DNA of 64,000 bases from a bacterium (GTDB taxonomy: Bacteria > Patescibacteriota > Microgenomatia > Levybacterales > UBA12049). The position numbers were made by a program, and so were the translations under genes. Position 1 is the stretch's first letter, and every line of letters starts with the position of its first letter. Under the pieces are notes generated by a model that saw nothing but the letters and a program-made list of their open reading frames with translations, did not search any database and had not been told where the DNA came from. Shown piece by piece: positions 10,927 to 39,907 of the stretch. The stretch spans positions 34,077-98,076 of the forward strand of contig JAJYDJ010000004.1 in the NCBI GenBank assembly GCA_021777565.1, given 5' to 3'.

Positions 10927-12642
10927 CAAGCTTGAAATAGCCTCATCAGAACCACACTTTTGGGTTACTAAATCAATGGAATCGCCAGGTTCGATTGTCT
11001 CCAGAACTTTAATATAGTTTTTCTTCATATTAGATAACACAATCCACGGTTCGTATTGATGTATCGATAAAATCTTATCAGTCAGTGTTAGGTTCGATCC
11101 GAGGGCGTGGAGTATAGCTCGCTTCTGTTCAGTTGTTCCTTTTTTAAACCAAATGTGCGCGTAGGTAGCAAAATTAAATGTCTGCTCACATAGTTCTAAC
11201 CACTCATCAGCGCGTTTATCTGTCTGAGCAACATTGGTGCGCACTTGCTTCTGCTCTTCTAGAAGGTTTGTCTTTTTATGCGTATATTCTTCATCAGTAA
11301 TGAAGCCTTTCAGTCGCATACTCAAGAGCTCATCAAGTTGCTTTTGTACGTCAGTATCTACAGATTGCAAGTTTTTCTTAATCGTAGTTCTTTCATGTAC
11401 TTCGTTCTTATGCAACTCCTGTAACCACTTAATTGCCCACTTACTAAATCCCTCAGGAATAGCAAACTGATCAATCAAGGCATTTACTTGTTCTTCAAAT
11501 TGAGTGACCACAAGGGAAGTTTGTTTGCATTTCTCTCCATCAGCTAACATTTTCTTTGTACAATGAAGCCACGTGTAGTGAAGAATGGTAGGATTTCTCA
11601 TTTCAGCAATCTTTTTTCCACACTGAATGCACTCATCTCTGTCCTGTGCTTTATGGAATTTCGTTTTACATATAGGGCAGATAATCTGCCATTTCTCTTC
11701 CATGGTAATATCACCACCACATTTGCCACACGTCATTTCTCCTGTGTATGCCCATTGTTTAGGTGTCAACCGTCTGTTTGCTTTCTTCCCAAGAAGGACC
11801 TGGATGGTGTCAAATTCTTCCTTTTTCATGAGAGGTTGGAAGTTGGCTGCAAACTCGCCTTCAGCTCGTACGATATGACCATAGTACTTTGGATCAGATA
11901 GTAACTTGTACCATGTACTCTTTGCCAGTGGGTTTCCACCCATTCTTTTTGTTTTTCTTGTGCGATATCCCCACTCATTGTTTAAAATATTTAGTGCTTC
12001 TATTGGTGTATGTGTCTTATTCAGAATAAGGGTAACTGCGTTATGTAGGAGTTGAAAACGATCCTTATCAACTCCCTGTATGTATTCATCGCGGTCATTC
12101 TTTATGTGGACATACCCTTGCGAGAGAGAACCACTCGGAATATACCCTGCTTTGAGTTTTGTTCTATTGCCACGCTTAACAACCTCACTTTTGTCATCAC
12201 TGTCTCTGGTTGCTCTAGTAAATTCATTCATCAAATATTCCTTATCTCGTGGAGAATTTTCAAAAACACCATGGGGAGTAACGACAATCTTTAGCTTTCC
12301 ATCAGACATGAGTTGCGTAAATCTGCCACCATCGGCGTAATTTCTCGCAATACGATTTGGGTGCCAAACCATAACGGCATCGACCTGTCCTTGTTCAATA
12401 AGGTCAATAAGTGCTTGAAATTGTGATCGTCCCATTTTGAAAGCTGATTGTTTTTCTTCAAAAACATGAATCATTGCAAGGGGAAGTTGAAATTTATTCA
12501 CAATATCACTTATTAAATCTTCTTTTTGTCCTTCAATGGAGCGAAGTTGTTTATCTTCATTGTCCTCGGTGGATTTACGAAGATACATACCAAATCTGTA
12601 TGTCTTTAGTTTTTGTTGGAGTGTGTAATCAAAAAATGCCAT
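10867..12642 (-). CDS. large serine recombinase (integrase) of the integrated element
   Basis: 591 aa. N-terminal resolvase-type catalytic domain with YLRKSTEDNE (catalytic Ser), a long recombinase domain and a Cys-rich zinc ribbon (CGKCGG...CPICK...CIQCGK). The last ~20 codons overlap the tRNA-Gln gene in antisense. Confidence 0.85.
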   Translation of the reverse strand: MAFFDYTLQQKLKTYRFGMYLRKSTEDNEDKQLRSIEGQKEDLISDIVNKFQLPLAMIHVFEEKQSAFKMGRSQFQALIDLIEQGQVDAVMVWHPNRIARNYADGGRFTQLMSDGKLKIVVTPHGVFENSPRDKEYLMNEFTRATRDSDDKSEVVKRGNRTKLKAGYIPSGSLSQGYVHIKNDRDEYIQGVDKDRFQLLHNAVTLILNKTHTPIEALNILNNEWGYRTRKTKRMGGNPLAKSTWYKLLSDPKYYGHIVRAEGEFAANFQPLMKKEEFDTIQVLLGKKANRRLTPKQWAYTGEMTCGKCGGDITMEEKWQIICPICKTKFHKAQDRDECIQCGKKIAEMRNPTILHYTWLHCTKKMLADGEKCKQTSLVVTQFEEQVNALIDQFAIPEGFSKWAIKWLQELHKNEVHERTTIKKNLQSVDTDVQKQLDELLSMRLKGFITDEEYTHKKTNLLEEQKQVRTNVAQTDKRADEWLELCEQTFNFATYAHIWFKKGTTEQKRAILHALGSNLTLTDKILSIHQYEPWIVLSNMKKNYIKVLETIEPGDSIDLVTQKCGSDEAISSLLPDLDSNQDKRIQSPLSYH

Positions 12643-16100: not shown

Positions 16101-16336
16101 ATTGATTCCTTCCCCTTTTTTGTGATCTTTATGCGTTGTTTCTCATTGATCCAAGCTTTTTGGATAGGACGGTAGATGGCATGAAATAGTCCCAGGAGCT
16201 TTTCTCCCTGCGTAAGAGCCTCTTCATAGGAGATGGCCTTGCCATACTGCTTTTGATACAGCACTTGGTACTCAAGAATAGCTTCACGAGGGAGTGTAAC
16301 GTTATTCACTATATATTCTCCTCTCTGCAAAAACAC
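16097..16336 (-). CDS. small hypothetical protein (island)
   Basis: 79-aa ORF with a 4-bp overlap with the downstream ORF. Confidence 0.3.
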   Translation of the reverse strand: MFLQRGEYIVNNVTLPREAILEYQVLYQKQYGKAISYEEALTQGEKLLGLFHAIYRPIQKAWINEKQRIKITKKGKESI

Positions 16337-16577
16337 GTGCTTTGAGTTCTTTCAAAATATAGAAATATTTTTTAGGAGAAACGGTCAGGGTATCTGCCCA
16401 GAAAGCTTGTATGAGGATATCCAAGTCTCCATTGCCATTTCGTTTAAATACAAAAAGTAAACGATTAGACTCTGTGGGATCCAGATGATCAAGCGAAAAT
16501 CCATAGCAGATGAGTGTTGCTGCCAACGATATTTCACTGGTTTTTAGATAGTATTTTTCTTCTTTATTCATACTCAT
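16302..16577 (-). CDS. small hypothetical protein (island)
   Basis: 91-aa ORF and first gene after the repeat-containing intergenic region. A possible Xis-like or regulator role is pure inference. Confidence 0.3.
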   Translation of the reverse strand: MSMNKEEKYYLKTSEISLAATLICYGFSLDHLDPTESNRLLFVFKRNGNGDLDILIQAFWADTLTVSPKKYFYILKELKARVFAERRIYSE

Positions 16578-16686: not shown

Positions 16687-18015
16687 TTATTTCTGAGGTA
16701 AAGCAACTAATTTATATCCAATGTTTGGTATATTAAAGAACATTATGTTAATTTCATCATTAGTCATCTTCGCATTTCTGAGAATTGGTTTTAAGTCATC
16801 CATAATATATTGAGTTGCTCTGTTAGAATCTTCTGACTGGAACGAATTAGATGGAATTTTTGCTTTTACGTCATCATATGTAGTAACGGCTTCTTTATTT
16901 ATTAAGAGTAATCTAAGTAATTTTATTCCTCTGGTACTCGGCCGAATATTTATCTGTGGGTTATCTCTAAATTTGAGTGTCGCTTTTGTTATATTGAGTT
17001 CGAGGCATCCAAAGGAATATATCTCTTCAGAAGGTATAGGCGATTGAGATACATCGCTAGATTTTTTGTTTTGGCTTTCTTGTACTTGGAGGGGTTTCTT
17101 CTCCACAGTATTAGGATTTATATTCCTAGTGTGTGATTTCATTGCCTTTTGAGTATTAAAGCCATCTACATAAACAAAGGCTCTAGGTGGAAGAGTGATG
17201 GTAACCTCGCAATGTCGGGGGGGATAGTATTCTTGAAGGTCACCACCAAAAATTATACTTTTTTGACTTTTGGATGTAACAGTTGGTTTAGAAGCGAAAT
17301 CAATTTTTACATTGTTTATAGTGAAATATCTTTCTCTTTCTAAAAGACGCAAAACATGCATAAACTTATATTTTATATCTGGTCTGTTCTTATCTGGCCG
17401 TAGTAACGAAATTCCTGCAGGATCATCTGTTGGGTTTTGCTTCTCATAAGAGCCTAGTATGGCTTCTGAAATTGTTAAGATACCACTACCATCATCAAAG
17501 TCAGCTTTTTTATCTTCATCCAAAATCTCTTTTATACATTGAAGCACTGTCTTTTTTTGTAACTCCTCGCTATATACATTACCTACTCCCTCAATCTCAT
17601 CATGAAGTGATTCAGCAAATGAGAGTAGTTGCTTATAGCTTACATCCGCTTTATATACCCCCGATTTAATCACTTTAAAGTTTTTGATAACTTTTTCTTT
17701 CTGTAGTGTATCGATGGCATCAAGAGTATCAAATCCTACTCGCCACTGGTCATTGTCTGCAAGTTCTGATGGAGAGAGAAGATCTATACTAAAAAAATCT
17801 GATTTTGGCTCCTTTAACTTCTTTCCAACCTCTGTGAGGTCGGTGACTATTTGCATCAATTCTTCAGAAATACGCTCAGCCTTTTCAAGACCAGTATTTC
17901 TGCCCAGGGGATTGAGTGACAAATCTACAGGAACAGCAAGTTGACCTTCTTGGTCAGAAAGAATCTCTTCTGTAGATTTTTTACCTAAGAATTTATTCAA
18001 TATTTTAATACTCAT
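16687..18015 (-). CDS. hypothetical DNA-binding protein with C-terminal OmpR/PhoB-type winged-helix domain
   Basis: 442 aa. The C-terminal ~80 aa (IKLLRLLLINKEAVTTYDDVKAKIP...IPNIGYKLV) fit the Trans_reg_C pattern: ...LLxxL...V...L....W......V...rLR.kL...GYrL. Confidence 0.4.
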   Translation of the reverse strand: MSIKILNKFLGKKSTEEILSDQEGQLAVPVDLSLNPLGRNTGLEKAERISEELMQIVTDLTEVGKKLKEPKSDFFSIDLLSPSELADNDQWRVGFDTLDAIDTLQKEKVIKNFKVIKSGVYKADVSYKQLLSFAESLHDEIEGVGNVYSEELQKKTVLQCIKEILDEDKKADFDDGSGILTISEAILGSYEKQNPTDDPAGISLLRPDKNRPDIKYKFMHVLRLLERERYFTINNVKIDFASKPTVTSKSQKSIIFGGDLQEYYPPRHCEVTITLPPRAFVYVDGFNTQKAMKSHTRNINPNTVEKKPLQVQESQNKKSSDVSQSPIPSEEIYSFGCLELNITKATLKFRDNPQINIRPSTRGIKLLRLLLINKEAVTTYDDVKAKIPSNSFQSEDSNRATQYIMDDLKPILRNAKMTNDEINIMFFNIPNIGYKLVALPQK

Positions 18016-18122: not shown

Positions 18123-19097
18123 TTAAGGGTGCAATTTCCCAGGATTTCTTGGAAACAAAATCGAATCTTCAACTGAATTAAGTTTAAGTAATTTACATAT
18201 AAAACGATCAATCCCCAAACAAAATCCTGCGTGATCTGGTGCACCAAGTCTAAATATGTCTAAAAAATCATCATAATCATGAACATTAAGTTTTTTTTCT
18301 ATAATTCTTCGAGTTAAAATATCTATATTTGTTTCCCGTTGTGCTCCTGATGCAATTTCCCAACCATCGAAAATAAGATCAAATGTTGCCGTATATTTAT
18401 CGTCTTTTTTCAATTTAGTATAGAATTTTTTTACAACAGATGGATATTGAGTAACAAAGAAGATGTTTACACCTTGTGAACTCATAATCTCACCCAATTT
18501 CTTTTCCCTTTCATAGCCTGGATCTTCACCCCATGTTATGTCAATATTGTGTTCTTGTAAAATTCTTATGGCTTCATCATATGTTAAACGTAATAGAGGG
18601 TAAGTGATATTTAAGGGTTTTATTATCTTATGATATTTTTCTACTGTTGCTGTTAACACATAATTTATAATATCTTCGAGAATAACCATTATTTCATTTT
18701 CATCTTGAATATATGCTATTTCTACATCTAATCCCCAAGATTCCACAGAATGACGAGGAGTAACAATCTCATTGTCTCTCCAAAACTGTGCAAGACTATA
18801 AATTTTAGAAAAACCCGCTGCCATTAGCATCTGTTTATGTAATTGTACTGATTGAATTAGATATGAATCCTGACCATAGTAATTTAATTTAAATAGTTCT
18901 TTAGTAGGATCTTTTACTGGATCTGTTGGGACAGAAACTATACTAGGCAAGTGAACTTCTAGAAAGTCTCTCTGATATAAAAATTGTCGTACTTTTTGGA
19001 AAACATATGATCTTATCTCAAAGGTTGTCCTTTGCTTAGGCAAAGACAAATATCGAAGTCTTTCAATAGTTGTTGAATTATAAGTTTTATTTGTCAT
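18123..19097 (-). CDS. standalone class IIb aaRS catalytic-core paralog, AspRS lineage, no anticodon-binding domain
   Basis: 324 aa. Motif 1 FLEVHLPSIV, AspRS-type QSVQLHKQMLMAAGF...FWRDNE, motif 3 GAPDHAGFCLGIDRF. Lacks the N-terminal OB fold. Clearly paralogous to the C-terminal half of the 23597..25597 product (KKFYTK...FDLIFDGWEIASGAQRETN vs KKFYTK...FDVIICGWEFVSGAVRETN). Confidence 0.7.
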   Translation of the reverse strand: MTNKTYNSTTIERLRYLSLPKQRTTFEIRSYVFQKVRQFLYQRDFLEVHLPSIVSVPTDPVKDPTKELFKLNYYGQDSYLIQSVQLHKQMLMAAGFSKIYSLAQFWRDNEIVTPRHSVESWGLDVEIAYIQDENEIMVILEDIINYVLTATVEKYHKIIKPLNITYPLLRLTYDEAIRILQEHNIDITWGEDPGYEREKKLGEIMSSQGVNIFFVTQYPSVVKKFYTKLKKDDKYTATFDLIFDGWEIASGAQRETNIDILTRRIIEKKLNVHDYDDFLDIFRLGAPDHAGFCLGIDRFICKLLKLNSVEDSILFPRNPGKLHP

Positions 19098-19147
19098 ATT
19101 GAATGAGGTCTTGTTCGGTAACTATTGGTTTATATGTTATATGCACT

Positions 19148-19190
19148 ATACCATAGTTATGGTAATATACCATTTGTACTTTTGTAGTAC
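19148..19190. promoter_or_regulatory. overlapping palindromes in a divergent promoter region (candidate operator)
   Basis: ACCATAGTTATGGT, ATGGTAATATACCAT and GTACTTTTGTAGTAC inverted repeats. They lie between the divergently transcribed 18123..19097 (-) and 19229..20263 (+) genes. Confidence 0.35.
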
Positions 19191-19228
19191 AAATGCTGAC
19201 GATAAATAATCCAGTAATATCATAAGTC

Positions 19229-20263
19229 ATGGAGACACATGTACCCAAAAAGAAAAACGAGATGTATATCTTTGTTATCGTTCCCGCCCTTAATGAAGAA
19301 ACGGAATTGCCAAAATTCTTCGATTCATTACGAGAACAAAAAACAGATTTTTCTTTCTCAGTTGTTATTATAGATAATAATAGTACAGATAATACTGCTG
19401 CTGTTGCTCGTTCTTACAGCGCTACTGTTATTTCCTGTAAAGAACAAGGTATCGGTCCTGCACGGGCTACAGGAGTGAATTATGTACTTGAAAAGTTTCA
19501 AGAAGATTGTGCTAACTTGCTCATTGTTCAACTCGATGCTGATGAAGTTCTTGATCCAGGATATATACAAGCAGTAGGGGAAGCATTTATTGCAAATCCA
19601 CATCTCATGGTATCTGTCGGCCCAACTATTTATACATTTATGTCAGATACCGAGAAAAAAATTATCTCTACAGGGAAAGAATTTCGCAATACATTCCAAA
19701 TCGAAGAAATGAAAGATCTTTTTTCTAGGCATAGCAGAGATATCGCAGATTATATTATCACACCAAGGTGTAGACATCTTATTGGTGGCAATACTGCATA
19801 TCGTGCAAGTGTCTTTTCTCTTCCTCATGTTGGATATTCGCAAGGAAACGGATGGGAATCGGTAGTTATCTCTGTCCGCCTTCACCAAGTGATTAGTGAC
19901 GACGGATTTGGCTTTGTTCCAGAACAAAAAGTTTATACGTCCGCACGCGCATACAGCGATGAGGAAGGGATTATAACAAAAGAAAAGATTGAACATATTA
20001 AAAAGCTCGGATACATTCCTCCATTTAAGCTTCACCAAGCGATTTCCCCTGCTGAAACAGCAAAGAATCTTATTCATGAGATTGAAAAGGAATTATACCA
20101 ACTTGCAGAAGATGAATATGTCTCAGAAATTATTTACTACACAGAAGGGACTCATCCTCCTGATGAGGTTACGGAAAAGCGTCTATTGCCTGCTCTTCAT
20201 GCAGCGACAAAGCAAGAAATTTCAAATAAATTTGTGGTTATTGGAAAGAGAAAATTCTCCTAA
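19229..20263 (+). CDS. family 2 glycosyltransferase (GT-A fold) with C-terminal extension
   Basis: 344 aa. N-terminal IFVIVPALNEE...SVVIIDNNSTDNTAAVA and DAD (a DxD motif). Confidence 0.7.
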   Translation: METHVPKKKNEMYIFVIVPALNEETELPKFFDSLREQKTDFSFSVVIIDNNSTDNTAAVARSYSATVISCKEQGIGPARATGVNYVLEKFQEDCANLLIVQLDADEVLDPGYIQAVGEAFIANPHLMVSVGPTIYTFMSDTEKKIISTGKEFRNTFQIEEMKDLFSRHSRDIADYIITPRCRHLIGGNTAYRASVFSLPHVGYSQGNGWESVVISVRLHQVISDDGFGFVPEQKVYTSARAYSDEEGIITKEKIEHIKKLGYIPPFKLHQAISPAETAKNLIHEIEKELYQLAEDEYVSEIIYYTEGTHPPDEVTEKRLLPALHAATKQEISNKFVVIGKRKFS

Positions 20264-21105
20264 AGAGATAAACCTTCGTACTGAGCAAACTCTTCTTCAG
20301 CAAGCTTTCTTGCTTCCTTAGGATCAGATAGAGAAGTGGAGGTAAAATATTCTGTCAAAATGGTGAGGCATCTCCCCTTGTTAAAAAACGGTGTTTCAAT
20401 TAAACGTGAAATATCTGAAATATCATGAGTCCTTATTGTTTCTCCTTTCTTTCTGTACGTTGGTACTAGTCGTATTTTAGCAGCAGCAATTTCTTCAGGA
20501 ATTGGTACTTCAAGAGTAATTTTCTCTCCATTTGCATTGTGTATATATCCTTGAGTAATTTCCATAGTAAATACTTTTCCATTTTTCCCAATAAGCTCTA
20601 CTTTATTTTTATATCTCTGTGGATTTGGGCTTCTATATACATGAATGTTTAATTGCCTTGGTAAGTCTGGAAAATCAGGATCGTTTGCACGGAGCCAGAA
20701 CCAATGAGGAGATGTGGGAAGACTGTACCAGCTGAAAGATGTTTGTGCATTGAGATAGGTCAATATTTTTTCTAAAACTTCATTCTCTTCCTCGTACATT
20801 GGAATAACTAAAGCAATGTCTATATCATGATGAAATCGTGTTATTTTATGTGAAATAAGTGAGTCTACTGCATAGCCAAATTCAAGAAGTGTTCTTAGTG
20901 AAAACTTTGGGCAAAAACTTTTTAGAATCAAAGAAATTTTTATATCTTCATCTATTCTCAGGTTTTCTTTATAAATTTTTGAATTCAAGTTCATAGCGCA
21001 CTTGATATAGTTTAATATATTGATATTCAAAAACAAAGTATATAATATATGAAATATGTCTAGCCAAGAAGCTCCACAAAATAATACAGTCCCAAGCGCA
21101 GACAC
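20260..21105 (-). CDS. hypothetical protein, possible nucleotidyltransferase fold
   Basis: 281 aa. GYAVDSLISHKITRFHHDIDIAL loosely fits the hG[GS]x9-13DhDh pattern of minimal NTases. The true start may be the internal Met at ~20994, since the annotated N-terminus overlaps ORF 21056..21334. Confidence 0.35.
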   Translation of the reverse strand: MSALGTVLFCGASWLDIFHILYTLFLNINILNYIKCAMNLNSKIYKENLRIDEDIKISLILKSFCPKFSLRTLLEFGYAVDSLISHKITRFHHDIDIALVIPMYEEENEVLEKILTYLNAQTSFSWYSLPTSPHWFWLRANDPDFPDLPRQLNIHVYRSPNPQRYKNKVELIGKNGKVFTMEITQGYIHNANGEKITLEVPIPEEIAAAKIRLVPTYRKKGETIRTHDISDISRLIETPFFNKGRCLTILTEYFTSTSLSDPKEARKLAEEEFAQYEGLSL

Positions 21106-21451: not shown

Positions 21452-22846
21452 ATGCTTGAGAGAGTATATATTAGTGATTTAAAGAATTATATTGGTCAAG
21501 ATGTTATTGTTGATGGTTGGGTTGATGTAAGGCGTGACCATGGTAAACTCATCTTCATAGATCTACGTGATAAATCAGAAAAAGTACAAATAGTATTTCT
21601 ACCTACTCACCAGGAAGCGCATGAAACTGCAAAGTCTATCCGTTCAGAATGGGTACTGAGAATAAAAGGAAAAGTGAATGCAAGATCGGAGAAACTTGTA
21701 AATAACAATGAATTTAATGGCACATTAGAAATTGAAGCATTGAGTGTTGAAGTATTGAATAAATCAGAAGCGCTTCCCATAGATATAAGCACAGATGGTC
21801 TTGAAATCAACGAAGAGAATCGACTTCGGTATAGATACCTTGACCTAAGAAGAAAACGTATGCAAAGAAATCTTCGCATACGCCATAAGATCATAAAGAA
21901 AATGAGAGATTATCTTGATGAACGTGATTTTATTGAAGTAGAGACTCCAATTTTGACAAAATCGACTCCCGAAGGTGCAAGGGACTATATTGTCCCTTCG
22001 AGACAATCTAAAGGAAAATTCTACGCACTACCACAATCACCACAACAATATAAACAACTATTGATGGTTGCTGGGATTGAAAAGTATTTTCAGATTGCGC
22101 GATGTTTTAGAGATGAAGATACCAGGTCAGATAGACAGCCAGAGTTCACACAAATGGATCTTGAAATGAGTTTCGTAACACAAGAAGAATTAATCAACTT
22201 GAATGAAGAGATGTTGATTCATATTGTGCAAACGCTTATACCAGAAAAAAAGATCCAACAAATTCCATTTCCTCGCATTACATATAAAGAGGCTATGGAG
22301 AAATATCATACGGATAGACCAGATATTAGAGAAAATAAAGATGATCCGAACCTTCTTGCGTTTTGCTGGGTTGTTGATTTTCCATTCTTCGAAAAAGCCG
22401 ATAATGGCAGTTGGACATTTACGCATAATCCTTTTTCTGCCCCTAAACCAGAATATATGAATGATTTGCTTATGAAAACAAATGTAGAGAATATTATAAC
22501 AACTCAGTATGATATTGTTTTGAATGGGTACGAAATCGGTGGTGGAAGTATTAGGAATCACAACCCAGAGGCATTAAAAGCTGTGTTTGAAATAATGGGA
22601 TACCCAGAAGATCAAATCTCAAAGAATTTTGGCCACATGTTGCAAGCGTTGTCATACGGTGCTCCACCACATGGAGGAATTGCTTGGGGATTAGATCGTT
22701 TCGTTACCCTCCTCTTAGGAGAAGACTCTATTAGAGAGGTTATTCCTTTTGCTAAAACAGGTGAAGGAAAAGATCTTATGATGAGTTCTCCCTCGGAAGT
22801 CTCTACTGCCCAGCTACAGGAGTTGAATATAAAAACTTTAAAATAA
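21452..22846 (+). CDS. aspS: aspartyl-tRNA synthetase, archaeal/eukaryal type (no GAD insertion), island copy
   Basis: 464 aa. N-terminal OB anticodon-binding domain (VIVDGWVDVRRDHGKLIFIDLRD), motif 1 FIEVETPILTKSTPEGARDYIVP, QSPQQYKQLLMVAG, motif 2 FRDEDTRSDRQPEFTQMD, motif 3 GAPPHGGIAWGLDRF. Confidence 0.85.
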   Translation: MLERVYISDLKNYIGQDVIVDGWVDVRRDHGKLIFIDLRDKSEKVQIVFLPTHQEAHETAKSIRSEWVLRIKGKVNARSEKLVNNNEFNGTLEIEALSVEVLNKSEALPIDISTDGLEINEENRLRYRYLDLRRKRMQRNLRIRHKIIKKMRDYLDERDFIEVETPILTKSTPEGARDYIVPSRQSKGKFYALPQSPQQYKQLLMVAGIEKYFQIARCFRDEDTRSDRQPEFTQMDLEMSFVTQEELINLNEEMLIHIVQTLIPEKKIQQIPFPRITYKEAMEKYHTDRPDIRENKDDPNLLAFCWVVDFPFFEKADNGSWTFTHNPFSAPKPEYMNDLLMKTNVENIITTQYDIVLNGYEIGGGSIRNHNPEALKAVFEIMGYPEDQISKNFGHMLQALSYGAPPHGGIAWGLDRFVTLLLGEDSIREVIPFAKTGEGKDLMMSSPSEVSTAQLQELNIKTLK

Positions 22847-22848
22847 AT

Positions 22849-23595
22849 ATGAAGACTGTACTTATTACTGGTGCGAGCAGTGGAATTGGAAAAGCATGTA
22901 GCGAAAAGTTTGCTTCTTCAGGATACCAGGTAGTAATGTGTGCGCGAAGAATAGATAAGTTACAAAGTATATGTCAGGAGTTCCCCGATAAACAGACCTG
23001 CATCTATCAAGTAGATGTTTGTAATAAAGAAAACGTTGAGTCTATGTTTGAAGATCTTAAGAAGAAAAAGATCACAATAGACATTGTTGTTAATTCTGCT
23101 GGATTAGCATTAGGATTAGATGATATACGGGATGCAAATACTTCAGACTGGGATAGTATGATTGATACGAATATCAAGGGTCTGTTATATACTACGCAAG
23201 AATTCTTGAAGCAAACGAACAAAGGACATGTGGTTAACGTAGGATCAATTGCTGGTATTTATGCGTACGCTAAAGGGACAGTATATGCTGCAACAAAATC
23301 GGCTGTGAAATTTATTAGCGATGGGTTACGTAAAGAATTGGTCAGCAATGACATTAAGATTACTAATATACAACCAGGTTTAGTAGAAACAAACTTTAGT
23401 AATGTGCGCTTCAATGGTGATAAGAAGCGAGCAAAAGATGTTTACAAAGGTATCCAGGCACTCACTGGAGATGATATTGCAAACATAGTATTTTATGTTG
23501 TGAATACACCAGAACATGTTCAAATTACTGAACTGACTGTTATGCCCCTACATCAAGCTTCTGTAGATACAGTATATCGTTCTCAAGATCAATAA
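22849..23595 (+). CDS. SDR-family NAD(P)-dependent oxidoreductase (YdfG / serine-dehydrogenase-like)
   Basis: 248 aa. TGASSGIGKA (TGxxxGIG), NSAG, catalytic YAATKSAV (YxxxK). It starts 3 nt after the AspRS stop and ends 2 nt before the next gene. Confidence 0.85.
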   Translation: MKTVLITGASSGIGKACSEKFASSGYQVVMCARRIDKLQSICQEFPDKQTCIYQVDVCNKENVESMFEDLKKKKITIDIVVNSAGLALGLDDIRDANTSDWDSMIDTNIKGLLYTTQEFLKQTNKGHVVNVGSIAGIYAYAKGTVYAATKSAVKFISDGLRKELVSNDIKITNIQPGLVETNFSNVRFNGDKKRAKDVYKGIQALTGDDIANIVFYVVNTPEHVQITELTVMPLHQASVDTVYRSQDQ

Positions 23596-23596
23596 T

Positions 23597-25597
23597 ATGT
23601 TGATTAAAGTTACATGCGCATCAATAAACCTTCAAAAGCTTAATGAAGATGCAATGGAGATGCTCTCAAATGCATCTTTAGCGAATGATGCAAGTACCAT
23701 AGCGAAAATAAAGGATGAACTTGGCTTTCCTGTCGAGCAACTTGCAGTTATTGAGAAGTGCAATGCTGTAATGATTGTTATTGCATATTATGGTGAATAT
23801 TTGGAGAACTACATTCATAGTAGACTATTGGACACATGGGATAAATTATCTCATGGCGGTGTTATAAACTCAGTGAGGCATATAAAGTTTTTTGACAATA
23901 GGGATGCAATCCACTACTTAGGAGAATGTGTGCTTGGATTGCACAGTGTAACTCTAGGAGATTCTCAGGTACTTGCTCAGGTAACCAGCGCTTTACAAGT
24001 GGCAGCACAAATTCAACCCAGTAATCCTACATTTTCATTTATGGCAAACTGGTTTAAAGATTTATCGAGTGAAGTAAAGTTACGTACATCACTTTTTGAT
24101 GGAAATATTTCGCTCGAAAGGATAGCAACTGATTTTATCGCTGAGCATATACAAAAGGACGGAAAAGTCACTATTGTTGGGTACGGTAGGTCAGGCAAGC
24201 TTGTCTCAAAAATTCTATCGGAGGAATTACACTACAATATACAAATTGCTAATCGGACACCGAACATACTTAAACACCTATCACCTAAGAGCGGCGTTAT
24301 TCCCGTTAGTTTCCAAGATTACAATAAAATTCTTGATGTAGATTGTGTAGTTATTGCGCTTTCTTCAAATGGAGAAACACAAAAATACTGTTCAGAGATG
24401 CTTTTAATTTGCGATGAATTAAAAAAGAAACCAAAACTATTTATTGATCTCGCAACTCCTCCATTAATGAGTAAAAATACTGTTCCTTATCTTATCAATA
24501 TCGAAGACTTATCTACAGTTGCACATAAAAATCTTGATAAACGCATTTCTGAAGTTGCGAAGGCAAGAGATATTGTTAATAAGTCAAGTAACACGTTTAT
24601 CGAAACGCTTAATAAAGAGATAAGTGCATTATTGCTTGATGAACAGAGAGAAAAAGTAAATTGCAAAATAGATCCTGTCAAGCTTGAATTGTTTAAATTT
24701 AGAAATGATGTGTATAAGTTCATCAGAGATTATCTTGATAAACTAGATTTTGTTGAGGTGAATACACCTTGTATTGTAGGTGTATCGACGGACCCACCAA
24801 AGGTTGATAAAGGAGGAACTCTTGATGTCTCTTGGCCTGGTGGGAATAATGCATTCCTCCGTCAATCAAACCAGCTCTATAAGCAGATGATTGTTGCTTC
24901 GGGTTTACCAAAAATTTATGAAATTGGACCATTCTGGCGCGCAGAGACAACTCCGTCTTATCGTCATTTACAAGAATCAATCGGCCTTGATGTAGAATAC
25001 AGCAATCCTAAAAATTTGGAAGAAGTTTATAGGCTTGCTTATGAAATAATTCTTGAAGTAAAAAATCACATTTTCAAACATCATGATATTAAGCGAAAAA
25101 ATCTACTCCTTCCTCGCTTTGATTCATTACCTATCTTCACGTATGAGGAGGCTGTAAAACTGTTGAATTCAAAGGGATACGCATTGGCGTTTGGAGAGGA
25201 TATTGGATTAATGGGTGAGGCGAAATTAGGACAGATTGTTCGACGAGAATACAATAGTGATGCACTTATTATCAAAGATTACCCTGACACAATCAAGAAG
25301 TTTTATACCAAGAAAAGCAAAGGTGGGCTAACTGAAACTTTTGATGTTATTATCTGTGGATGGGAATTTGTGAGTGGGGCAGTAAGAGAAACTAATAGAG
25401 ATCTTATTGAAAAATCAATGAAGTTATCGGGGATCAATATTCGCAACTACAATTTCTATCTTTCTATCGTAGATGGTGCAGTCCCGCACGGAGGATTCTG
25501 TCTTGGATTGGATCGACTTGTGGCAAAACTCCTTGACCATGAGATGATTACTGATGCCGTAGTCTTCCCACGATCATTTAAGACACTTATTCCGTAA
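23597..25597 (+). CDS. fusion protein: N-terminal glutamyl-tRNA reductase (HemA)-like catalytic + NADPH-binding domains, C-terminal AspRS-lineage class II catalytic core
   Basis: 666 aa. N-terminal blocks line up with GluTR: EKCNAVMIV (cf. TCNRxE, the catalytic Cys), HYLGECVLGLHSVTLGDSQVLAQV (cf. HLxRVASGLDSxVLGExQILGQV), VTIVGYGRSGKLV...IQIANRT (cf. VLVIGAGEMG...IANRT), LFIDLATPP (cf. LVDIAVPRD). The C-terminal ~300 aa has aaRS motif 1 FVEVNTPCIV, QSNQLYKQMIVASGL, FWRAETT and motif 3 GAVPHGGFCLGLDRL. No OB anticodon-binding domain. Confidence 0.7.
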   Translation: MLIKVTCASINLQKLNEDAMEMLSNASLANDASTIAKIKDELGFPVEQLAVIEKCNAVMIVIAYYGEYLENYIHSRLLDTWDKLSHGGVINSVRHIKFFDNRDAIHYLGECVLGLHSVTLGDSQVLAQVTSALQVAAQIQPSNPTFSFMANWFKDLSSEVKLRTSLFDGNISLERIATDFIAEHIQKDGKVTIVGYGRSGKLVSKILSEELHYNIQIANRTPNILKHLSPKSGVIPVSFQDYNKILDVDCVVIALSSNGETQKYCSEMLLICDELKKKPKLFIDLATPPLMSKNTVPYLINIEDLSTVAHKNLDKRISEVAKARDIVNKSSNTFIETLNKEISALLLDEQREKVNCKIDPVKLELFKFRNDVYKFIRDYLDKLDFVEVNTPCIVGVSTDPPKVDKGGTLDVSWPGGNNAFLRQSNQLYKQMIVASGLPKIYEIGPFWRAETTPSYRHLQESIGLDVEYSNPKNLEEVYRLAYEIILEVKNHIFKHHDIKRKNLLLPRFDSLPIFTYEEAVKLLNSKGYALAFGEDIGLMGEAKLGQIVRREYNSDALIIKDYPDTIKKFYTKKSKGGLTETFDVIICGWEFVSGAVRETNRDLIEKSMKLSGINIRNYNFYLSIVDGAVPHGGFCLGLDRLVAKLLDHEMITDAVVFPRSFKTLIP

Positions 25598-25606
25598 TCA
25601 TATACT

Positions 25607-26596
25607 ATGCAACAAATAATTATTGATGCACATACTCATGCTGCGGGTGTCGACTTTTACAATCTTTTTATCCCCCGCAAGCCACTTGTACAAAGTACCA
25701 GAGACTTAATTTTAAAGATGGACTTATATGGCATAGACTACTCAATAGTTATGCCTATGCCATTTGCAATGTATTATGATCCTAGGAAAGTTAGTCAGGG
25801 AGAGTGGGCTCTCAGTGGTCTAGAAGAATTTCCTTATCAAGTATTGAATACCACATTACTTTATGAGTCTCAGGAATATTCCGATCGGCTATTTCCCTTT
25901 ATGGCAATAGATCCTCGTACAAAAGTCGAGGAGCAAATACAATTTCTTACACAACAAGTCGAGAGAAAAAAGATCTATGGTCTTAAGTTACATACATTAG
26001 CAACTAATTCTTCTGCAACTGTGTTGAGTGATAGTTTATTTGCTAAATTCATGAAAAAATATAACTTACCGATTATTATACATGCGGGAAGAGATACAAC
26101 AACATCGCCTATTCATGTCTTGAACTTTGCAAAACAAAACCCAGAAATTCGAGTATGTATCGCACATCTTGCAGGTTTTGACAATTCTGTACTTAAGCAG
26201 TCACTTGAGATTAAAAATGTTTTCTTTGATACTTCACCTTTTTTATCTCATTGTAAATTTGCTGTAGATGATATATCGTCCTATGTCTCATCGGATCGAT
26301 TTAATACGAACTATGATGATCCTGTAAATGCACTTCTAGAACTTTCTACCTATCTTAAATCGAAACTTCTATGGGGATCAGATGAGCCATGGACAAGTGT
26401 AAGCAATCCAAAAGGGGCAGCATTATCTTCATTTTCATATAAAGATGAATGTAGTATTCTAAATCAACTAAACTCTATGAACCATGAAAACACAGTGAAT
26501 GAAATTGCATATACTAATTCACTTAGATTTCTTTATGGTGATGCTTCCCTTAGGCTTACTAAAAAAGCTAATAAGCATCATAAGAATGATCACTGA
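25607..26596 (+). CDS. metal-dependent TIM-barrel hydrolase (amidohydrolase-2-like)
   Basis: 329 aa. N-terminal IIIDAHTHAAGVD (HxH metal ligands), later His/Asp residues (IIIHAGRD, IAHLAG, WGSDEPW). Confidence 0.55.
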   Translation: MQQIIIDAHTHAAGVDFYNLFIPRKPLVQSTRDLILKMDLYGIDYSIVMPMPFAMYYDPRKVSQGEWALSGLEEFPYQVLNTTLLYESQEYSDRLFPFMAIDPRTKVEEQIQFLTQQVERKKIYGLKLHTLATNSSATVLSDSLFAKFMKKYNLPIIIHAGRDTTTSPIHVLNFAKQNPEIRVCIAHLAGFDNSVLKQSLEIKNVFFDTSPFLSHCKFAVDDISSYVSSDRFNTNYDDPVNALLELSTYLKSKLLWGSDEPWTSVSNPKGAALSSFSYKDECSILNQLNSMNHENTVNEIAYTNSLRFLYGDASLRLTKKANKHHKNDH

Positions 26597-39901: not shown

Positions 39902-39907
39902 ATTTAG

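Follow-up and report, generated by a model that had tools for sequence, protein, structure and literature searches.

Catalytic cores of class II aminoacyl-tRNA synthetases also occur as paralogues without an anticodon-binding domain, which act as amide or ester ligases, namely AsnA, AS-AR, EpmA and the amino acid:carrier-protein ligases. AS-AR and AsnA are class IIb cores of about 300-330 aa derived from AspRS/AsnRS and form aspartyl-adenylate for a non-tRNA acceptor. EpmA (PoxA/GenX; EF-P beta-lysine ligase) is a LysRS-derived class IIb core with a non-canonical acceptor. GluTR is to our knowledge the only enzyme which reduces an aminoacyl-tRNA, solely for the synthesis of haem and chlorophyll. 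The Arg of its C-N-R motif binds the Glu carboxylate. In the GluTR reaction, the acyl group of the charged tRNA is taken over by a Cys as thioester and reduced by NADPH to the amino-acid 1-semialdehyde (PMC3778395). A fusion of AspRS with a second enzyme is described for ErdS (ergosteryl-3beta-O-L-aspartate synthase), where an entrapped tRNA(Asp) swings between two active sites (PMC13219428). Concerning AspRS itself, the Glu of the flipping loop binds the alpha-amino group, and E398 of PvAspRS, the equivalent of the motif-2 Glu, contacts the adenine amino group (N6) (PMC12262901).

In this study, we analyse a standalone AspRS-derived core, P0001, and the genes around it in a stretch of 64,000 nucleotides of bacterial DNA (hereafter the window). 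The features of the window are listed in Table 1; related loci are designated by L numbers. In the literature searched we found no description or published name either for a lineage of GluTR-associated AspRS-derived cores or for the module to which they belong.

Table 1. Coordinates of the genes and regions of the window which are discussed in the text
Feature	Coordinates	Strand	Description
tRNA-Gln(CTG)	10856..10927	+	ARAGORN, Rfam
Large serine recombinase at island edge	10867..12642	-	591 aa; Pfam Resolvase; NCBIfam CcrA/CcrB/XisF-like
P0001, standalone class IIb AspRS-derived catalytic core	18123..19097	-	ORF, ATG start, 324 aa
Divergent intergenic region, core gene / GT2 gene	19098..19228	.	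131 nt
P0003, island AspRS	21452..22846	+	Complete bacterial-type, OB fold + catalytic domain, without GAD insertion, 464 aa
YdfG-like short-chain dehydrogenase (SDR)	22849..23595	+	248 aa; Pfam adh_short 1.5e-47; YdfG model 233 bits
P0002, fusion of GluTR (HemA)-like reductase and AspRS-derived core	23597..25597	+	666 aa
Amidohydro_2 metal-dependent hydrolase	25607..26596	+	329 aa; Pfam PF04909 1e-12
ORF resembling C-terminal part of large serine recombinases	28543..29034	-	163 aa
Housekeeping archaeal-type ND-AspRS of the host	61823..63187		NCBIfam

Descent of the standalone core

Translation of the P0001 ORF reveals zero internal stops, and the strings QSVQLHKQ, FWRDNE and GAPDHAGFCLGIDRF, quoted for it in an earlier note on this DNA, are all found in the protein. 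In a Pfam scan only tRNA-synt_2 was matched, over residues 15-318 (E 1e-64), and the OB domain tRNA_anti-codon was not found, so that the description as an anticodon-less AspRS-core paralogue is borne out. P0001 aligns to residues 124-438 of T. kodakarensis AspRS, i.e. from the start of the catalytic domain. Since the intergenic region upstream of the gene comprises only 131 nt, the domain has been cleanly excised, and P0001 is no remainder of a full-length gene in decay. Ten homologues at 44-63% identity show 72 invariant columns. The AlphaFold (AF2) model of P0001 (mean pLDDT 84) matches solved AspRS catalytic domains with TM 0.85-0.88, and its top 50 PDB matches in Foldseek are all AspRS or AsnRS. 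On these grounds the gene is real.

The best NCBIfam match of P0001 is archaeal-type AspRS (NF003483 / TIGR00458) with 287 bits against a cut-off of 353; the housekeeping AspRS of the host scores 478 on the archaeal-type AspRS model. A further archaeal-type AspRS model gives 242 bits (cut-off 368), and in a PDB sequence search T. kodakarensis AspRS was matched with 222 bits. Likeness to this enzyme (1B8A/3NEL) extends over the whole catalytic domain at about 35-40% identity and TM 0.86-0.87. Motifs 1-3, QSxQ, the Lys/Arg pair and the Asp/Glu for Mg are common to P0001 and archaeal/eukaryal-type AspRS, and the motif-2 loop is equally long in both. P0001 differs by the absence of the OB domain and hinge, by a TDPxK loop with four additional residues, by the elements FWR, KKFY, GWE and RET and by a motif-2 Asn. 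P0001 was accordingly rejected as a canonical archaeal-type AspRS: it has motifs 1-3, but neither the OB domain nor a score at the equivalog cut-off nor the (S/T)-E-G-G flipping loop. Nor is it the housekeeping synthetase, in agreement with the earlier note, since the host has its own archaeal-type ND-AspRS.

The described families of anticodon-less cores were rejected as well. On the models for archaeal AsnA/AS-AR (NF005052-55) P0001 reaches 130 bits against a cut-off of 368. The solved relatives 3P8T and 1NNH give 43 and 50 bits as compared to 222 for AspRS, and there is no AS-AR/AsnA among the top 50 Foldseek matches. With EpmA, P0001 has in common a class IIb core without anticodon domain. 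However, its scores on the EpmA/PoxA/GenX models are low (70.8 vs 286.9 bits, TIGR00462; 68.6 vs 264 bits, NF006828), the tree places it among AspRS-type sequences, against the LysRS ancestry of EpmA, and efp or epmB neighbours are absent. The earlier note had considered that P0001 might group inside an AsnA or EpmA clade or be a pseudogene with a broken motif 2; all scores are far under the cut-offs, and motif 2 is not degraded. An amino acid:[carrier protein] ligase of the Mocibob type was rejected, the core being AspRS-type, not SerRS-type, and a PP-binding gene being absent; in Pfam scans none of the neighbours has a PP-binding (carrier-protein) domain. An ErdS-type AspRS fusion was rejected, too: DUF2156 is absent from the window and the related loci, and the resemblance is mechanistic only.

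Within the window, P0001 is closest to the C-terminal half of the fusion P0002 (fusion residues 360-666; 37% identity, 191 bits), as had been proposed; identity to the housekeeping AspRS is 29% (141 bits) and to the island AspRS P0003 27% (100 bits). The 40-aa block common to P0001 and the fusion, which had been called near-identical, is indeed the best-conserved stretch and holds lineage-specific residues, but only 24/40 positions are identical. A neighbour-joining (NJ) tree was computed from 193 core sequences, in which the P0001 clade has a bootstrap of 99 for 8 members. Together with all fused cores and a few other standalone cores it forms one clade apart from canonical archaeal-type AspRS. 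The bootstrap of 76 lends moderate support to this grouping of P0001 as sister to the fused core. The standalone clade comprises about 10 cores and its fused relatives more than 200, mostly from Patescibacteria; homologues of the fusion make up more than 200 clusters. The add-on cores of L001 and L002 share 63% identity with P0001. In four loci (L097, L098, L013, L014) the fused enzyme occurs with no standalone core within 10 kb. The FWRDNE motif was found in 3/3 cores coexisting with a fusion (P0001, P0008, P0014), and 4/4 cores from unfused operons have FWR[AKR]EE. Because of this distribution P0001 is an add-on copy with an ancestry separate from that of the fused core of the window.

Active site and conserved partners

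Class II motifs 1-3 and the Lys and Arg for the Asp side chain are kept in P0001. Invariant across its clade are motif-1 Pro51, QSxQ, Lys88, motif-2 Arg107, Asp124/Glu126, Asp240/Glu247 (Mg), Arg254, His289 and motif-3 Arg298. A check of the Asp-recognising residues, which the earlier note had asked for, gave a divided result: the side-chain binders Lys88 (QSPQLYK) and Arg254 (QRE) are retained, but the flipping loop is remodelled. It reads T58-D59-P60-V-K-D-P-T-K-E with a 4-residue insertion as compared to the canonical (S/T)-E-G-G; among 82 canonical enzymes the loop Glu is conserved in 100% and the insertion present in 0%. Besides the flipping-loop Glu, which is changed to Asp, the remodelled amino-group binders include QSPQ (to QSVQ; QS(V/N)Q) and REH (to RET), and the substitutions cluster at the site which normally holds the alpha-amino and alpha-carboxyl end. 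The lineage signature consists of the TDPxK loop with its insertion, a W before the motif-2 Arg (FWR), KKFY, GWE and RET. P0001 has all five elements, and they are conserved to 90-100% in the standalone clade and to 80-100% in 46 fused cores; at the matched gene the signature was found in 0/80 canonical AspRS loci. We predict that P0001 descends from an archaeal-type AspRS and is a class IIb enzyme of the dimer type, competent in catalysis, which forms adenylates.

In P0001 the motif-2 Glu is changed to Asn. That this change is limited to cores coexisting with a fused core could hint at a non-catalytic or regulatory subunit, i.e. an add-on core without full activity which would pair as a heterodimer with the fused enzyme or the island AspRS or provide a scaffold for one of them. 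Class II cores dimerise via motif 1, whose Pro51 is retained, and the fusion gene of L001 and L002 is immediately followed by the gene of the add-on core. Still, apart from this position the whole clade, P0001 included, shows no variation in the residues for ATP, Mg and substrate, and a hydrogen bond to the purine would be possible for Asn as well. Moreover, three orthologues at 63% overall identity keep the motif-2 Asn, which argues for selection and not decay. A purely regulatory role is thus highly improbable.

Concerning the neighbourhoods, a GluTR-like protein is encoded in 7/8 contextualised loci of the P0001 clade. In the window, L001 and L002 this protein is joined to a second core, and in L004, L009, L095 and L096 it is encoded by the next gene; P0017, the most divergent clade member, comes from loci without a visible GluTR-like gene. 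A complete AspRS is encoded in 8/8 clade loci and also adjoins the fusion in L014, L097 and L098. Alcohol dehydrogenases are present in non-homologous forms: the window, L097 and L098 have an SDR, and L009, L095 and L096 an Fe-ADH. A tRNA gene is located upstream of the core gene at a distance of 12 nt in L004 and L096 (anticodon GUC) and of 47 nt in L009 (anticodon GUU). As L004 and L096 are near-identical, this adjacency represents only two independent lineages. The three operon tRNAs are mutually homologous and keep G73; where the anticodon is GUC, its loop is atypical (A32, U37, U38). No module-associated tRNA gene was found in the window, L001, L002 or L095. In Patescibacteria the fused operon is located in syntenic housekeeping surroundings (ScpA/ScpB, Peptidase_S11, MraY, FtsW, MurG).

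A conserved amine-supplying, amide-related, amidotransferase or carrier-protein partner was not found with the clade. P0001 resembles AS-AR and AsnA in size, in descent from AspRS/AsnRS and in the absence of an anticodon domain; it differs from them by its position outside their clade and by conserved partners which are tRNA-related, not ammonia-related. The GluTR-like enzyme, the complete AspRS and, in three unfused operons, the tRNA(GUC/GUU) therefore point to tRNA-linked chemistry. They speak against the earlier view of P0001 as an AsnA-like amide ligase rather than a tRNA synthetase, while its assignment to a pathway module built on aspartyl activation holds.

In P0002 a reductase (residues about 1-355) precedes the AspRS-derived core (about 360-666), and Pfam identifies GlutR_N, Shikimate_DH and tRNA-synt_2. 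A GxGxxG for NADPH is found at 195-200, Cys55 falls on the catalytic Cys in alignments to Arabidopsis and M. kandleri GluTR, and K-C-N is invariant in 116 fusions. Fused and unfused reductases carry (Q/E)KCN[C/A] and GDxQV, whereas canonical GluTR has (S/T)TCNR and GE(P)Q. With about 10 members, the family of unfused GluTR-like proteins is as small as the core clade, and it is most closely related to the fused reductase domains, canonical HemA being more distant. The unfused reductase has the full GluTR architecture including the dimerisation domain (hemA model, 212 bits; cut-off 209.6). Most members have the AspRS-derived core in the place of the GluTR dimerisation domain.

Candidate pathways of aspartate reduction

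We propose, with a probability of roughly 0.4, that the enzymes of the P0001 lineage activate Asp in a tRNA(Asp)-linked aspartate-reduction module, in which the AspRS-derived core is the partner of the GluTR-like reductase. Asp would be held by Lys88/Arg254, activated by ATP and carried as ester on the 3' end of a tRNA of the tRNA(Asp/Asn) type with discriminator G73. The invariant cysteine of the GluTR-like enzyme would receive the aspartyl group as thioester, reduction by NADPH would give aspartate semialdehyde, and the co-operonic SDR, a candidate aldehyde-to-alcohol reductase of the module, would turn the aldehyde into an amino-hydroxy acid; in unfused operons this step would fall to the Fe-ADH. 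The core would hereby be the activating and acceptor-end-handling partner, in a layout comparable to an A domain beside an R domain; tRNA would be the carrier arm, a use for which ErdS is a precedent. P0001 itself probably catalyses a modified form of this adenylation, in which another acceptor or nucleotide is preferred, rather than housekeeping aminoacylation, since the fusion of the window already has a core, the ancestry of P0001 differs and its motif-2 Glu is Asn. The domains, the retained and altered residues, the position in the tree, the gene neighbourhoods and the adjacent tRNA genes are observed; from them we infer the substrate, the use of tRNA by the core, which carboxyl undergoes reduction, what is finally produced and the special role of P0001. 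Several observations speak against the proposal. The complete, strictly co-occurring AspRS looks redundant if the core charges the tRNA; the operon tRNAs keep the GUY anticodon needed by ND-AspRS, which suggests that the full AspRS and not the core charges them. Moreover, the remodelled amino-group binders would fit a flipped (beta-carboxyl) binding or an Asp-derived substrate equally. Further points against it are the four loci in which the module has no tRNA gene, the limitation of the tRNA adjacency to two lineages, the moderate bootstrap of the uniting clade, the position of P0001 outside the operon and on the opposite strand, and the loci of P0017.

The core might instead act downstream, on the reduced product. 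AspRS would charge the tRNA, the GluTR-like enzyme and the alcohol dehydrogenase would make 3-amino-4-hydroxybutanoate ('aspartol'), and the core would adenylylate or ligate it with ATP. The product could be a stable aspartyl-adenylate mimic which inhibits AspRS, the extra AspRS being a self-protection copy. Such a pathway would give a non-redundant role to each strictly conserved part (AspRS, tRNA, reductase, alcohol dehydrogenase, core). It would explain why the GUC/GUU anticodon is kept while the remaining loop drifts, and it would explain why the module supplies an AspRS to genomes which possess another (the ND-AspRS in the window; a second archaeal-type AspRS in L097). The clustering of changes at the alpha-amino/alpha-carboxyl site is consistent with it, as Lys88/Arg254 would hold an Asp look-alike. 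Some versions of the module encode types of enzymes which detoxify aminoacyl-adenylate analogues, i.e. GNAT Acetyltransf_3 (L009, L014) and Peptidase_S66 (L097), and carriage of the module by mobile islands with serine recombinases would also fit. However, the GNAT and S66 matches are weak and generic (RimL 43 vs 184; LdcA 112 vs 378) and not conserved across loci, no conserved exporter was found, and the housekeeping synteny in Patescibacteria looks like core metabolism and not like an antibiotic cluster. We know of no class II synthetase fold which adenylylates an alcohol. Action on the reduced product is therefore unlikely, albeit worth considering.

Another possibility concerns the carboxyl group. 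In a tRNA-independent reaction with the regiochemistry of AsnA, the core would make beta-aspartyl-AMP and hand the acyl group directly to the reductase Cys, yielding L-aspartate-4-semialdehyde and then, via SDR/Fe-ADH, homoserine; the reaction would offer another way than aspartokinase, ASA dehydrogenase and homoserine dehydrogenase. The elements which have moved in the core (loop Glu to Asp with insertion, QSPQ, REH) are the amino-group binders, and since the Asp carboxylates are equidistant, an AspRS pocket could switch regiochemistry by moving these binders alone. In the reductase, GExQ is changed to GDxQ and the Arg of CNR is lost. There is a precedent for the change of an AspRS into a beta-activating enzyme, as the archaeal AS-AR is reportedly such a converted AspRS. 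Direct hand-over would suit a fusion of adenylation and reductase domains, and products of central metabolism would suit the wide, apparently vertical spread beside cell-wall genes in small-genome Patescibacteria. Left unexplained are the near-universal AspRS neighbour and the tRNA genes upstream of the core. The unfused reductase retains the full GluTR architecture (212 vs 209.6 bits), and GluTR-family enzymes are known to us only with aminoacyl-tRNA ester substrates. In no neighbourhood was an ASA or homoserine consumer (dapA, thrB, metX-type) seen. We regard tRNA-independent beta-activation as quite unlikely.

The tRNA(Asp)-linked reduction which we favour can be extended to a wider claim, which we put forward only tentatively. 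The module as a whole would be an unrecognised aspartyl-tRNA (or aspartyl-adenylate) reductase pathway of core, reductase and sometimes a dedicated non-decoding tRNA(GUC/GUU), similar in layout to A-carrier-R, with P0001 as a free-standing, trans-acting activating subunit. Aspartate semialdehyde and then an amino-hydroxy acid would be produced, which would amount either to a third route to aspartate-4-semialdehyde and homoserine or to a new metabolite, 3-amino-4-hydroxybutanoate. In Patescibacteria the module would occur widely, in the form of one fused enzyme, and in other bacteria it would be mobile.

As compared to the C5 pathway (GluTR/GluRS/tRNA(Glu)), the proposed aspartate-reduction module would share aminoacyl-tRNA-dependent reduction, and its reductase is a GluTR homologue with the Cys and NADPH site. 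It differs in the synthetase family, which is AspRS (class II) and not GluRS (class I), and in a reductase which lacks the C-N-R Arg and has a Lys preceding the Cys. GSA aminomutase and other haem genes are not nearby; an alcohol dehydrogenase follows instead. ErdS has an AspRS-family part joined to a second enzyme which consumes an aspartyl ester apart from translation (PMC13219428; PMC7334510), and the module would resemble it in this respect. ErdS, in contrast, is fungal and consists of a full AspRS with anticodon-binding domain and a DUF2156/GNAT transferase partner; in the module a reductase takes the place of the transferase, the core is devoid of the anticodon-reading part, and a complete AspRS is encoded alongside as a protein of its own. 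The proposed logic of adenylation, carrier arm or thiol, NAD(P)H reduction of a thioester and often an alcohol as next product is also that of carboxylic acid reductases and NRPS A-T-R modules. The folds are different (class II aaRS vs ANL, GluTR vs an SDR-type R domain), and so is the carrier (tRNA or none vs phosphopantetheine).

If true, aspartate-directed aminoacyl-tRNA reduction would be a new case of tRNA acting outside translation and a new way to an aspartate-derived aldehyde or alcohol in small-genome bacteria. The pairing with a seemingly purpose-built AspRS-derived core, found in hundreds of Patescibacteria lineages and borne by islands into other bacteria, is unusual. It offers a handle on the function of a large set of proteins which are at present only labelled 'aspartyl-tRNA synthetase', 'glutamyl-tRNA reductase' or 'amino acid--tRNA ligase-related'. 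Such labels would mislead metabolic reconstructions, e.g. by implying haem synthesis in organisms without it. The standalone core with its co-encoded tRNA represents a compact system of four proteins and one RNA which could be reconstituted in vitro.

The glycosyltransferase neighbour and the island

Between P0001 and the oppositely transcribed AspRS-SDR-fusion operon there are a GT2 gene and an unknown gene. The region which separates P0001 from the divergent GT2 gene contains a perfect 10-nt inverted repeat (19171-19180 / 19186-19195), two copies of the direct repeat TATACCAT (19147-19154 and 19166-19173) and, found by eye, the short palindrome ACCATAgtTATGGT. Repeats are therefore present, as the earlier note had described for a divergent promoter with palindromes, but promoter-like matches in this region are not above shuffle expectation (12 found vs 17.3 expected), and a shared regulated promoter is thus not shown. 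The divergent arrangement occurs in 0/11 related loci examined and is unique to the window; the link of P0001 to glycosylation by way of this promoter could not be sustained.

In the earlier reading P0001 is an amide or ester ligase tied to the glycosyltransferase genes by the promoter; ammonia, an amine or an acceptor linked to a sugar would receive the aspartyl group of Asp-AMP. P0001 does keep all adenylation residues, the divergent GT2 gene does lie across a region with palindromes, and the acceptor could be the reduced compound made by the neighbouring operon. Scores and fold ranking, however, exclude membership in AsnA, AS-AR or EpmA, and carrier-protein, amidotransferase or amine-forming genes conserved with the clade were not found. 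The GT2 neighbour is missing from all 11 related loci examined, promoter-like sites are not enriched, and the larger glycosyltransferase cluster (29.7-38.3 kb) is separated from P0001 by the recombinase remnant 28543..29034. A ligase of this kind is improbable.

P0001 shares its island with the fusion, at a distance of 4.5 kb, and with the island AspRS, at 2.4 kb. The operon starts with AspRS P0003, followed by the SDR and the fusion. P0003 has the Pfam domains tRNA_anti-codon and tRNA-synt_2 and scores 645 bits on NCBIfam aspS (cut-off 443), the two matched stretches skipping the GAD region; it is 63-67% identical to the AspRS adjoining the fusions in L098 and L014. An SDR 61-64% identical to that of the window is found at the equal position in L097 and L098. 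At its left edge the low-GC island borders on the tRNA-Gln(CTG) gene, where it probably integrated; to the right of this gene GC drops from about 43% to 33-38%. The module is carried by mobile islands with serine recombinases: the recombinase at the island edge is 31-32% identical to those flanking the module in L001. The ORF 28543..29034, for which Pfam gave no match, has 36-37% identity to both L001 recombinases in tblastn and is a probable recombinase remnant at the right end of the module-bearing segment. Homologues of the Amidohydro_2 hydrolase are encoded at the end of the L009 operon (55% identical) and at the contig end of L096 (69% over 61 aa), and an Amidohydro_2 gene is also present upstream of the L098 operon, making this hydrolase a recurrent member of the module.

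Domain content and family placement of the standalone core

The gene under study, P0001, encodes a standalone core of aspartyl-tRNA synthetase (AspRS) type. Its open frame contains the strings quoted in the earlier note as AspRS-type signatures of a class IIb core of 324 aa. As stated there, the protein has no anticodon-binding domain: Pfam reveals tRNA-synt_2 alone (E 1e-64, residues 15-318) and no OB domain. The nearest solved relative is the AspRS of T. kodakarensis (3NEL/1B8A, 222 bits), to which P0001 aligns from residue 124, the start of the catalytic domain, to the C terminus. Since the P0001 start lies only 131 nt from the divergent GT2 gene, there is no space for a decayed N-terminal domain. 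An AlphaFold model computed with nine clade sequences as input has a mean pLDDT of 84; confidence drops only in the flipping loop (residues 60-67) and near the motif-2 loop. Its PDB structure matches are headed by the catalytic domains of archaeal and eukaryal AspRS (TM 0.85-0.88), and AsnRS comes next.

Against NCBIfam models P0001 scores 287 bits for archaeal-type AspRS (cut-off 353), 185 bits for AsnRS (cut-off 414), 130 bits for archaeal AsnA (cut-off 368) and 71 bits for EpmA (cut-off 287). The AS-AR structures 1NNH and 3P8T match with 50 and 43 bits. By these scores P0001 is not a member of AsnA, AS-AR or EpmA; both model scores lie far under the cut-offs, and the placement that the earlier note had named as speaking against its own reading does not apply. 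AS-AR/AsnA and EpmA share the truncation of P0001 but belong to a different clade. Within the window the closest relative is, as had been proposed, the C-terminal half of P0002, the fusion of a glutamyl-tRNA reductase (GluTR)-like domain to an AspRS core (37% identity, 191 bits); identity to the other AspRS genes is 29% (housekeeping) and 27% (island). The 40-aa block common to P0001 and the fused core had been called near-identical, which overstates 24 identical positions out of 40.

A word-indexed search of 5.8 billion proteins revealed only about 10 close homologues of about 320 aa with 44-63% identity. In an exhaustive HMMER search (1.84 billion representatives) the other standalone and the GluTR-fused cores rank above canonical archaeal AspRS. 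Homologues of the fusion fall into >200 clusters, the few named ones belonging to Patescibacteria (Falkowbacteria, Kaiserbacteria). The core tree, which is neighbour-joining only, was built from 193 catalytic-core sequences over 329 columns with 100 bootstraps. In it, eight of the standalone sequences make up the standalone clade (bootstrap 99), which is united with every sampled fused core and six further cores of standalone length in one clade apart from the canonical OB-bearing enzymes (bootstrap 76). This grouping is also supported by rare shared characters. The flipping loop, canonically (S/T)-E-G-G with Glu in 82/82 sequences, reads T-D-P-x-K in the lineage and has a 4-residue insertion; Trp replaces the canonical Phe before the motif-2 Arg and the canonical Leu/Val before the Mg-binding Glu, KK replaces (R/K)P before FY, and REH after the conserved Arg becomes RET.

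The lineage signature was present at the matched gene in 0 of 80 canonical metagenome AspRS loci, which are ordinary archaeal-type AspRS (27-36% identity) found with two search patterns, one of them generic (QSxQ..KQ), and which serve as negative control only. A genome-contig search with P0001 returned just two Thermoplasmata AspRS genes (35-40% identity), viral contigs searched with P0001 and P0002 no relatives, and tblastn of PLSDB plasmids with the fusion ordinary aspS genes alone and no fused homologue. The 914-aa protein P0145, considered as a complete AspRS joined to a standalone-type core and thereby a Rosetta-stone link, was rejected, as the tree identifies it as a tandem duplicate of eukaryote-like AspRS. 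A separate mobile context is seen in L010 2055..5903 (also L011, L012), where three class IIb paralogues stand beside a TraG-like T4SS coupling protein: the 294-aa standalone core P0017, the most divergent clade member; an overlapping 443-aa AspRS of archaeal type; and an OB-bearing protein that reaches 341 bits with the model for archaeal AsnA (cut-off 368) and has 'ATDPG' at the flipping-loop position. No GluTR-like gene is visible among the neighbours of P0017.

Active-site residues of the lineage

Invariant in the clade are the motif-1 Pro, QSxQ, Lys88, Arg254, the motif-2 Arg107, Asp124/Glu126, His289, the motif-3 Arg298 and the Mg ligands Asp240/Glu247. Lys88 and Arg254 correspond to the AspRS pair holding the Asp side-chain carboxylate. 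Concerning the Asp-recognising residues that the earlier note had singled out, this side-chain pair is thus kept and the flipping loop is replaced. With its catalytic residues invariant, the enzyme should have kept the ability to bind ATP and a ligand carrying a distal carboxylate, and P0001 as a non-catalytic subunit is less likely. The rebuilt part of the active site is the lid, which serves in AspRS to bind the alpha-amino group and, at a later stage, to anchor A76 (PMC12262901).

A further change concerns the motif-2 Glu of AspRS (E398 of PvAspRS), which touches the adenine amino group (PMC12262901). All three cores coexisting with a fusion, P0001 and its counterparts P0008 and P0014 from L001 and L002, have F-W-R-D-N-E; four cores from unfused operons have F-W-R-[AKR]-E-E. 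That three orthologues share the Asn points to a selected change rather than decay.

The island and the conserved neighbours

The P0001 gene lies within an island of low GC content (33-38% versus about 43% in the flanks), 2.4 kb from an AspRS-SDR-fusion-Amidohydro_2 operon that is followed by a P-loop kinase and a NUDIX gene. The 64-kb window contains four AspRS-family genes of three different ancestries. The housekeeping enzyme is located outside the island, in DNA of host GC content; as it is complete, the island AspRS and both cores are extra copies. GAD is missing entirely from the island AspRS, which the model matches in two separate stretches. Relatives without GAD, 463-465 aa long and 63-67% identical, adjoin the fusions in L014 and L098; the AspRS of L097, L001, L002, L009 and L096 have kept GAD.

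Features of the window and tRNA genes of related loci (coordinates of the window unless a locus is named)
Feature	Coordinates	Strand	Remarks
tRNA-Gln(CTG)	10856-10927		left island edge
Large serine recombinase, 591 aa	10867..12642		left island edge; ORF overlaps tRNA-Gln(CTG)
DUF5659 protein	16302..16577	-	after the 442-aa gene
442-aa protein	16687..18015	-	directly downstream of the P0001 gene, same strand; no family match
Standalone AspRS-type core P0001	18123..19097	-	324 codons, ATG, uninterrupted frame
GT2	19229..20263	+	two alternative public-assembly gene calls, 344 aa and 333 aa
281-aa ORF	20260..21105	-	GTG start; called as 244 aa in other assemblies
AspRS, bacterial type, 464 aa	21452..22846	+	first operon gene; OB fold, no GAD insertion
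SDR	22849..23595		second operon gene
GluTR-like::AspRS-core fusion, 666 aa	23597..25597		third operon gene
Amidohydro_2	25607..26596		fourth operon gene
Recombinase-like remnant, 163 aa	28543..29034		16 kb right of the serine recombinase
Group II PLP-dependent decarboxylase, 568 aa	33568..35274	+	inside glycosyltransferase cluster
180-aa ORF	36619..37161	+	inside glycosyltransferase cluster
NgoFVII-type restriction endonuclease and C-5 cytosine methyltransferase	38882..41017	-	type II R-M pair, near right low-GC end
GluRS	58458..59900	-	neighbour of housekeeping AspRS
Housekeeping AspRS, 454 aa	61823..63187	-	archaeal-type, non-discriminating; 478 bits, cut-off 353
Operon-linked tRNA	L004 5594-5669
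Operon-linked tRNA	L096 838-913
Operon-linked tRNA	L009 243-317

The recombinase-like remnant divides the module segment from a glycosyltransferase/HD/PLP-decarboxylase cluster at 29.7-38.3 kb. Together with the recombinase at the left edge it suggests a composite or nested mobile element. In L001 the same module is carried between two large serine recombinases. A reading as defence island was abandoned, since PADLOC gave no match on the module and the neighbouring island genes except a weak one for NUDIX.

Several further genes of the island were observed. The decarboxylase, another enzyme of Asp or DAB type, has aspartate 1-decarboxylase PanP (147 bits) and L-2,4-diaminobutyrate decarboxylase (108 bits) as top matches, both far below the cut-offs. 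Of the MgsA AAA+ ATPase, the 180-aa ORF has the C-terminal domain (PF12002) alone and no ATPase domain. The C-terminal ~100 residues of the 442-aa protein resemble, by eye only, a winged-helix OmpR-type DNA-binding domain; neither its gene nor the DUF5659 gene has a counterpart in the related loci. The 281-aa ORF matches no Pfam or NCBIfam family. As to the region between P0001 and GT2, the palindromes described earlier exist, but the shared promoter read from them is not supported, promoter-like sites being no more frequent than by chance. The hairpins at 19150-19195 were also considered as minihelix-like acceptor mimics, an idea dropped for want of a 3' NCCA on either strand.

Neighbourhoods were compared at 13 loci, eight with members of the standalone clade and five with fused relatives. 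The unfused operons of L009, L096 and L004 (the last cut by the contig end) share the order core, GluTR-like reductase (421-428 aa), bacterial-type AspRS, Fe-ADH; in L095 the core and GluTR-like genes are followed first by Fe-ADH and then by AspRS. GNAT and Amidohydro_2 follow the operon in L009, and an Amidohydro_2 fragment ends that of L096. Fused operons read AspRS-SDR-fusion in the window, L097 and L098, and AspRS-GNAT-fusion in L014; Amidohydro_2 occurs in those of the window and L098, and in L013 the fusion stands alone. L001 and L002, whose standalone cores are closest to P0001, have the order fusion, standalone core, AspRS, with ThiF and Peptidase_M29. Two non-homologous types of alcohol dehydrogenase in one slot are the pattern expected if an aldehyde product needs reduction.

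The unfused GluTR-like reductases form a family no larger than the core clade. They are related most closely to the reductase halves of the fusions and less closely to canonical HemA; core and reductase halves thus co-evolve. In place of the (S/T)-T-C-N-R and G-E-(P)-Q of canonical GluTR, all module reductases carry (Q/E)-K-C-N-[C/A] and G-D-x-Q-V; the arginine of C-N-R, which in GluTR binds the Glu carboxylate, is lost. Their Cys is aligned with the GluTR nucleophile, which forms a thioester (PMC3778395), and the NADPH motif is intact.

The module of the window is a mosaic. Its AspRS, SDR and fusion genes are 57-67% identical to their counterparts in L014, L097 and L098, and the fusion is only 39% identical to that of L001/L002. 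P0001 is 63% identical to the L001/L002 cores and 55-59% to those of unfused operons, and the Amidohydro_2 gene likewise matches the unfused-operon loci. Since fused operons exist without any standalone core (L097, L098, L013, L014), the standalone core is an optional addition to the fused system.

Some neighbours vary from locus to locus. Peptidase_S66 (LdcA/MccF family; L097 12080..13066) and GNAT (Acetyltransf_3; L009 5639..6145, L014 9447..9983) lie beside reductase genes; such types elsewhere detoxify aminoacyl-adenylate analogues, the scores here being weak and generic. A ThiF/MoeB-like E1 adenylyltransferase (256-266 aa) and a Peptidase_M29 aminopeptidase occur in L001 (3552..5382) and L002 (7624..9505) and are absent from the window. 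MccE-, MccF- or MccB-like immunity or biosynthesis roles for GNAT, S66 and ThiF were discarded, as the NCBIfam matches fall far short of the cut-offs and these genes lack conservation. A PDB sequence search with the Amidohydro_2 protein gave no informative relative.

Operon-linked tRNAs and the proposed pathway

In three unfused operons the core gene is directly preceded by a tRNA gene. The gap measures 12 nt in L004 and L096, whose tRNA has the anticodon GUC, and 47 nt in L009, where the anticodon is GUU; as L004 and L096 are near-identical, these are only two independent cases. The three tRNAs are homologous, with nearly identical D and T arms, compensated acceptor-stem changes and discriminator G73 kept. 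The anticodon loop of the GUC form reads A32-U33-G-U-C-U37-U38; decoding tRNAs very rarely have a pyrimidine at position 37. In the L004 tRNA the basal pair of the anticodon stem is, in addition, a C-A mismatch. The three look like dedicated, non-decoding tRNAs. No operon tRNA of that kind was found in L095, the window island, L001 or L002; in the latter three, ARAGORN and Rfam with permissive E-values detected only the island-edge tRNA-Gln and no other tRNA or tRNA-like RNA.

GUC and GUU are exactly the anticodons that a non-discriminating AspRS reads. A complete AspRS is present at all eight clade loci and adjoins the fusion in three of four further fused loci. Taken together, these findings connect the module with Asp-tRNA chemistry and argue against a purely tRNA-free amide ligase; the GT2-linked amide ligase of the earlier note is less likely.

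What we say of function beyond domain content, residues and neighbourhoods is inference. We favour, with a probability of about 70%, an aspartate-activating pathway with GluTR-type reduction, linked to AspRS and tRNA. The lineage would activate aspartate with ATP and work at the 3' terminus of a tRNA(Asp)-type carrier. The GluTR-like enzyme would take over the aspartyl group as Cys thioester and reduce it with NADPH to the semialdehyde, which SDR or Fe-ADH would convert to an amino-hydroxy acid. That the core is the activating and acceptor-end partner of the reductase we propose only tentatively. In the structure of ErdS, an AspRS fusion, an entrapped tRNA(Asp) swings between two active sites (PMC13219428), which makes a comparable arrangement, core-carrier-reductase, plausible for the GluTR-like::core fusion.

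The main weakness of a tRNA-charging core is its redundancy with the ever-present complete AspRS; a second puzzle is the GUY anticodon kept by the operon tRNA and readable only by an OB-bearing enzyme. Both motivate a different assignment, in which AspRS charges the tRNA, reductase and alcohol dehydrogenase make an amino alcohol and this Asp look-alike is the substrate of the remodelled core. An adenylate mimic might result, against which the extra AspRS would give immunity. This would account for the constant complete AspRS and the retained anticodon, and the Mcc-like idea for GNAT, S66 and ThiF lends it weak support; we consider it unlikely. Still more doubtful is activation of the beta-carboxyl with direct hand-over to the Cys, yielding ASA and homoserine, which would be the AsnA logic of the earlier note in the regiochemical sense. 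The carboxylates of Asp are equidistant and only amino-group binders have changed, Glu to Asp in both core and reductase, so that the sequence fits alpha and beta activation alike.

Full-text literature searches gave no account of an aspartyl-tRNA reductase, a GluTR/AspRS fusion or the module of P0001, and those on GluTR in Patescibacteria likewise nothing that describes it. Database names of the relatives are generic ('amino acid--tRNA ligase-related protein', 'aspartyl-tRNA synthetase', 'glutamyl-tRNA reductase'). There is a realistic chance that the module marks a new pathway. It belongs with aaRS paralogues and tRNA-dependent metabolism. With the archaeal-type AspRS catalytic domain the P0001 lineage shares fold and chemistry but differs in the lid and in having no anticodon reader; the GluRS/GluTR/tRNA(Glu) system has the same reduction logic but another amino acid and synthetase class; and ErdS is likewise an AspRS-family module feeding a fused second enzyme via tRNA.
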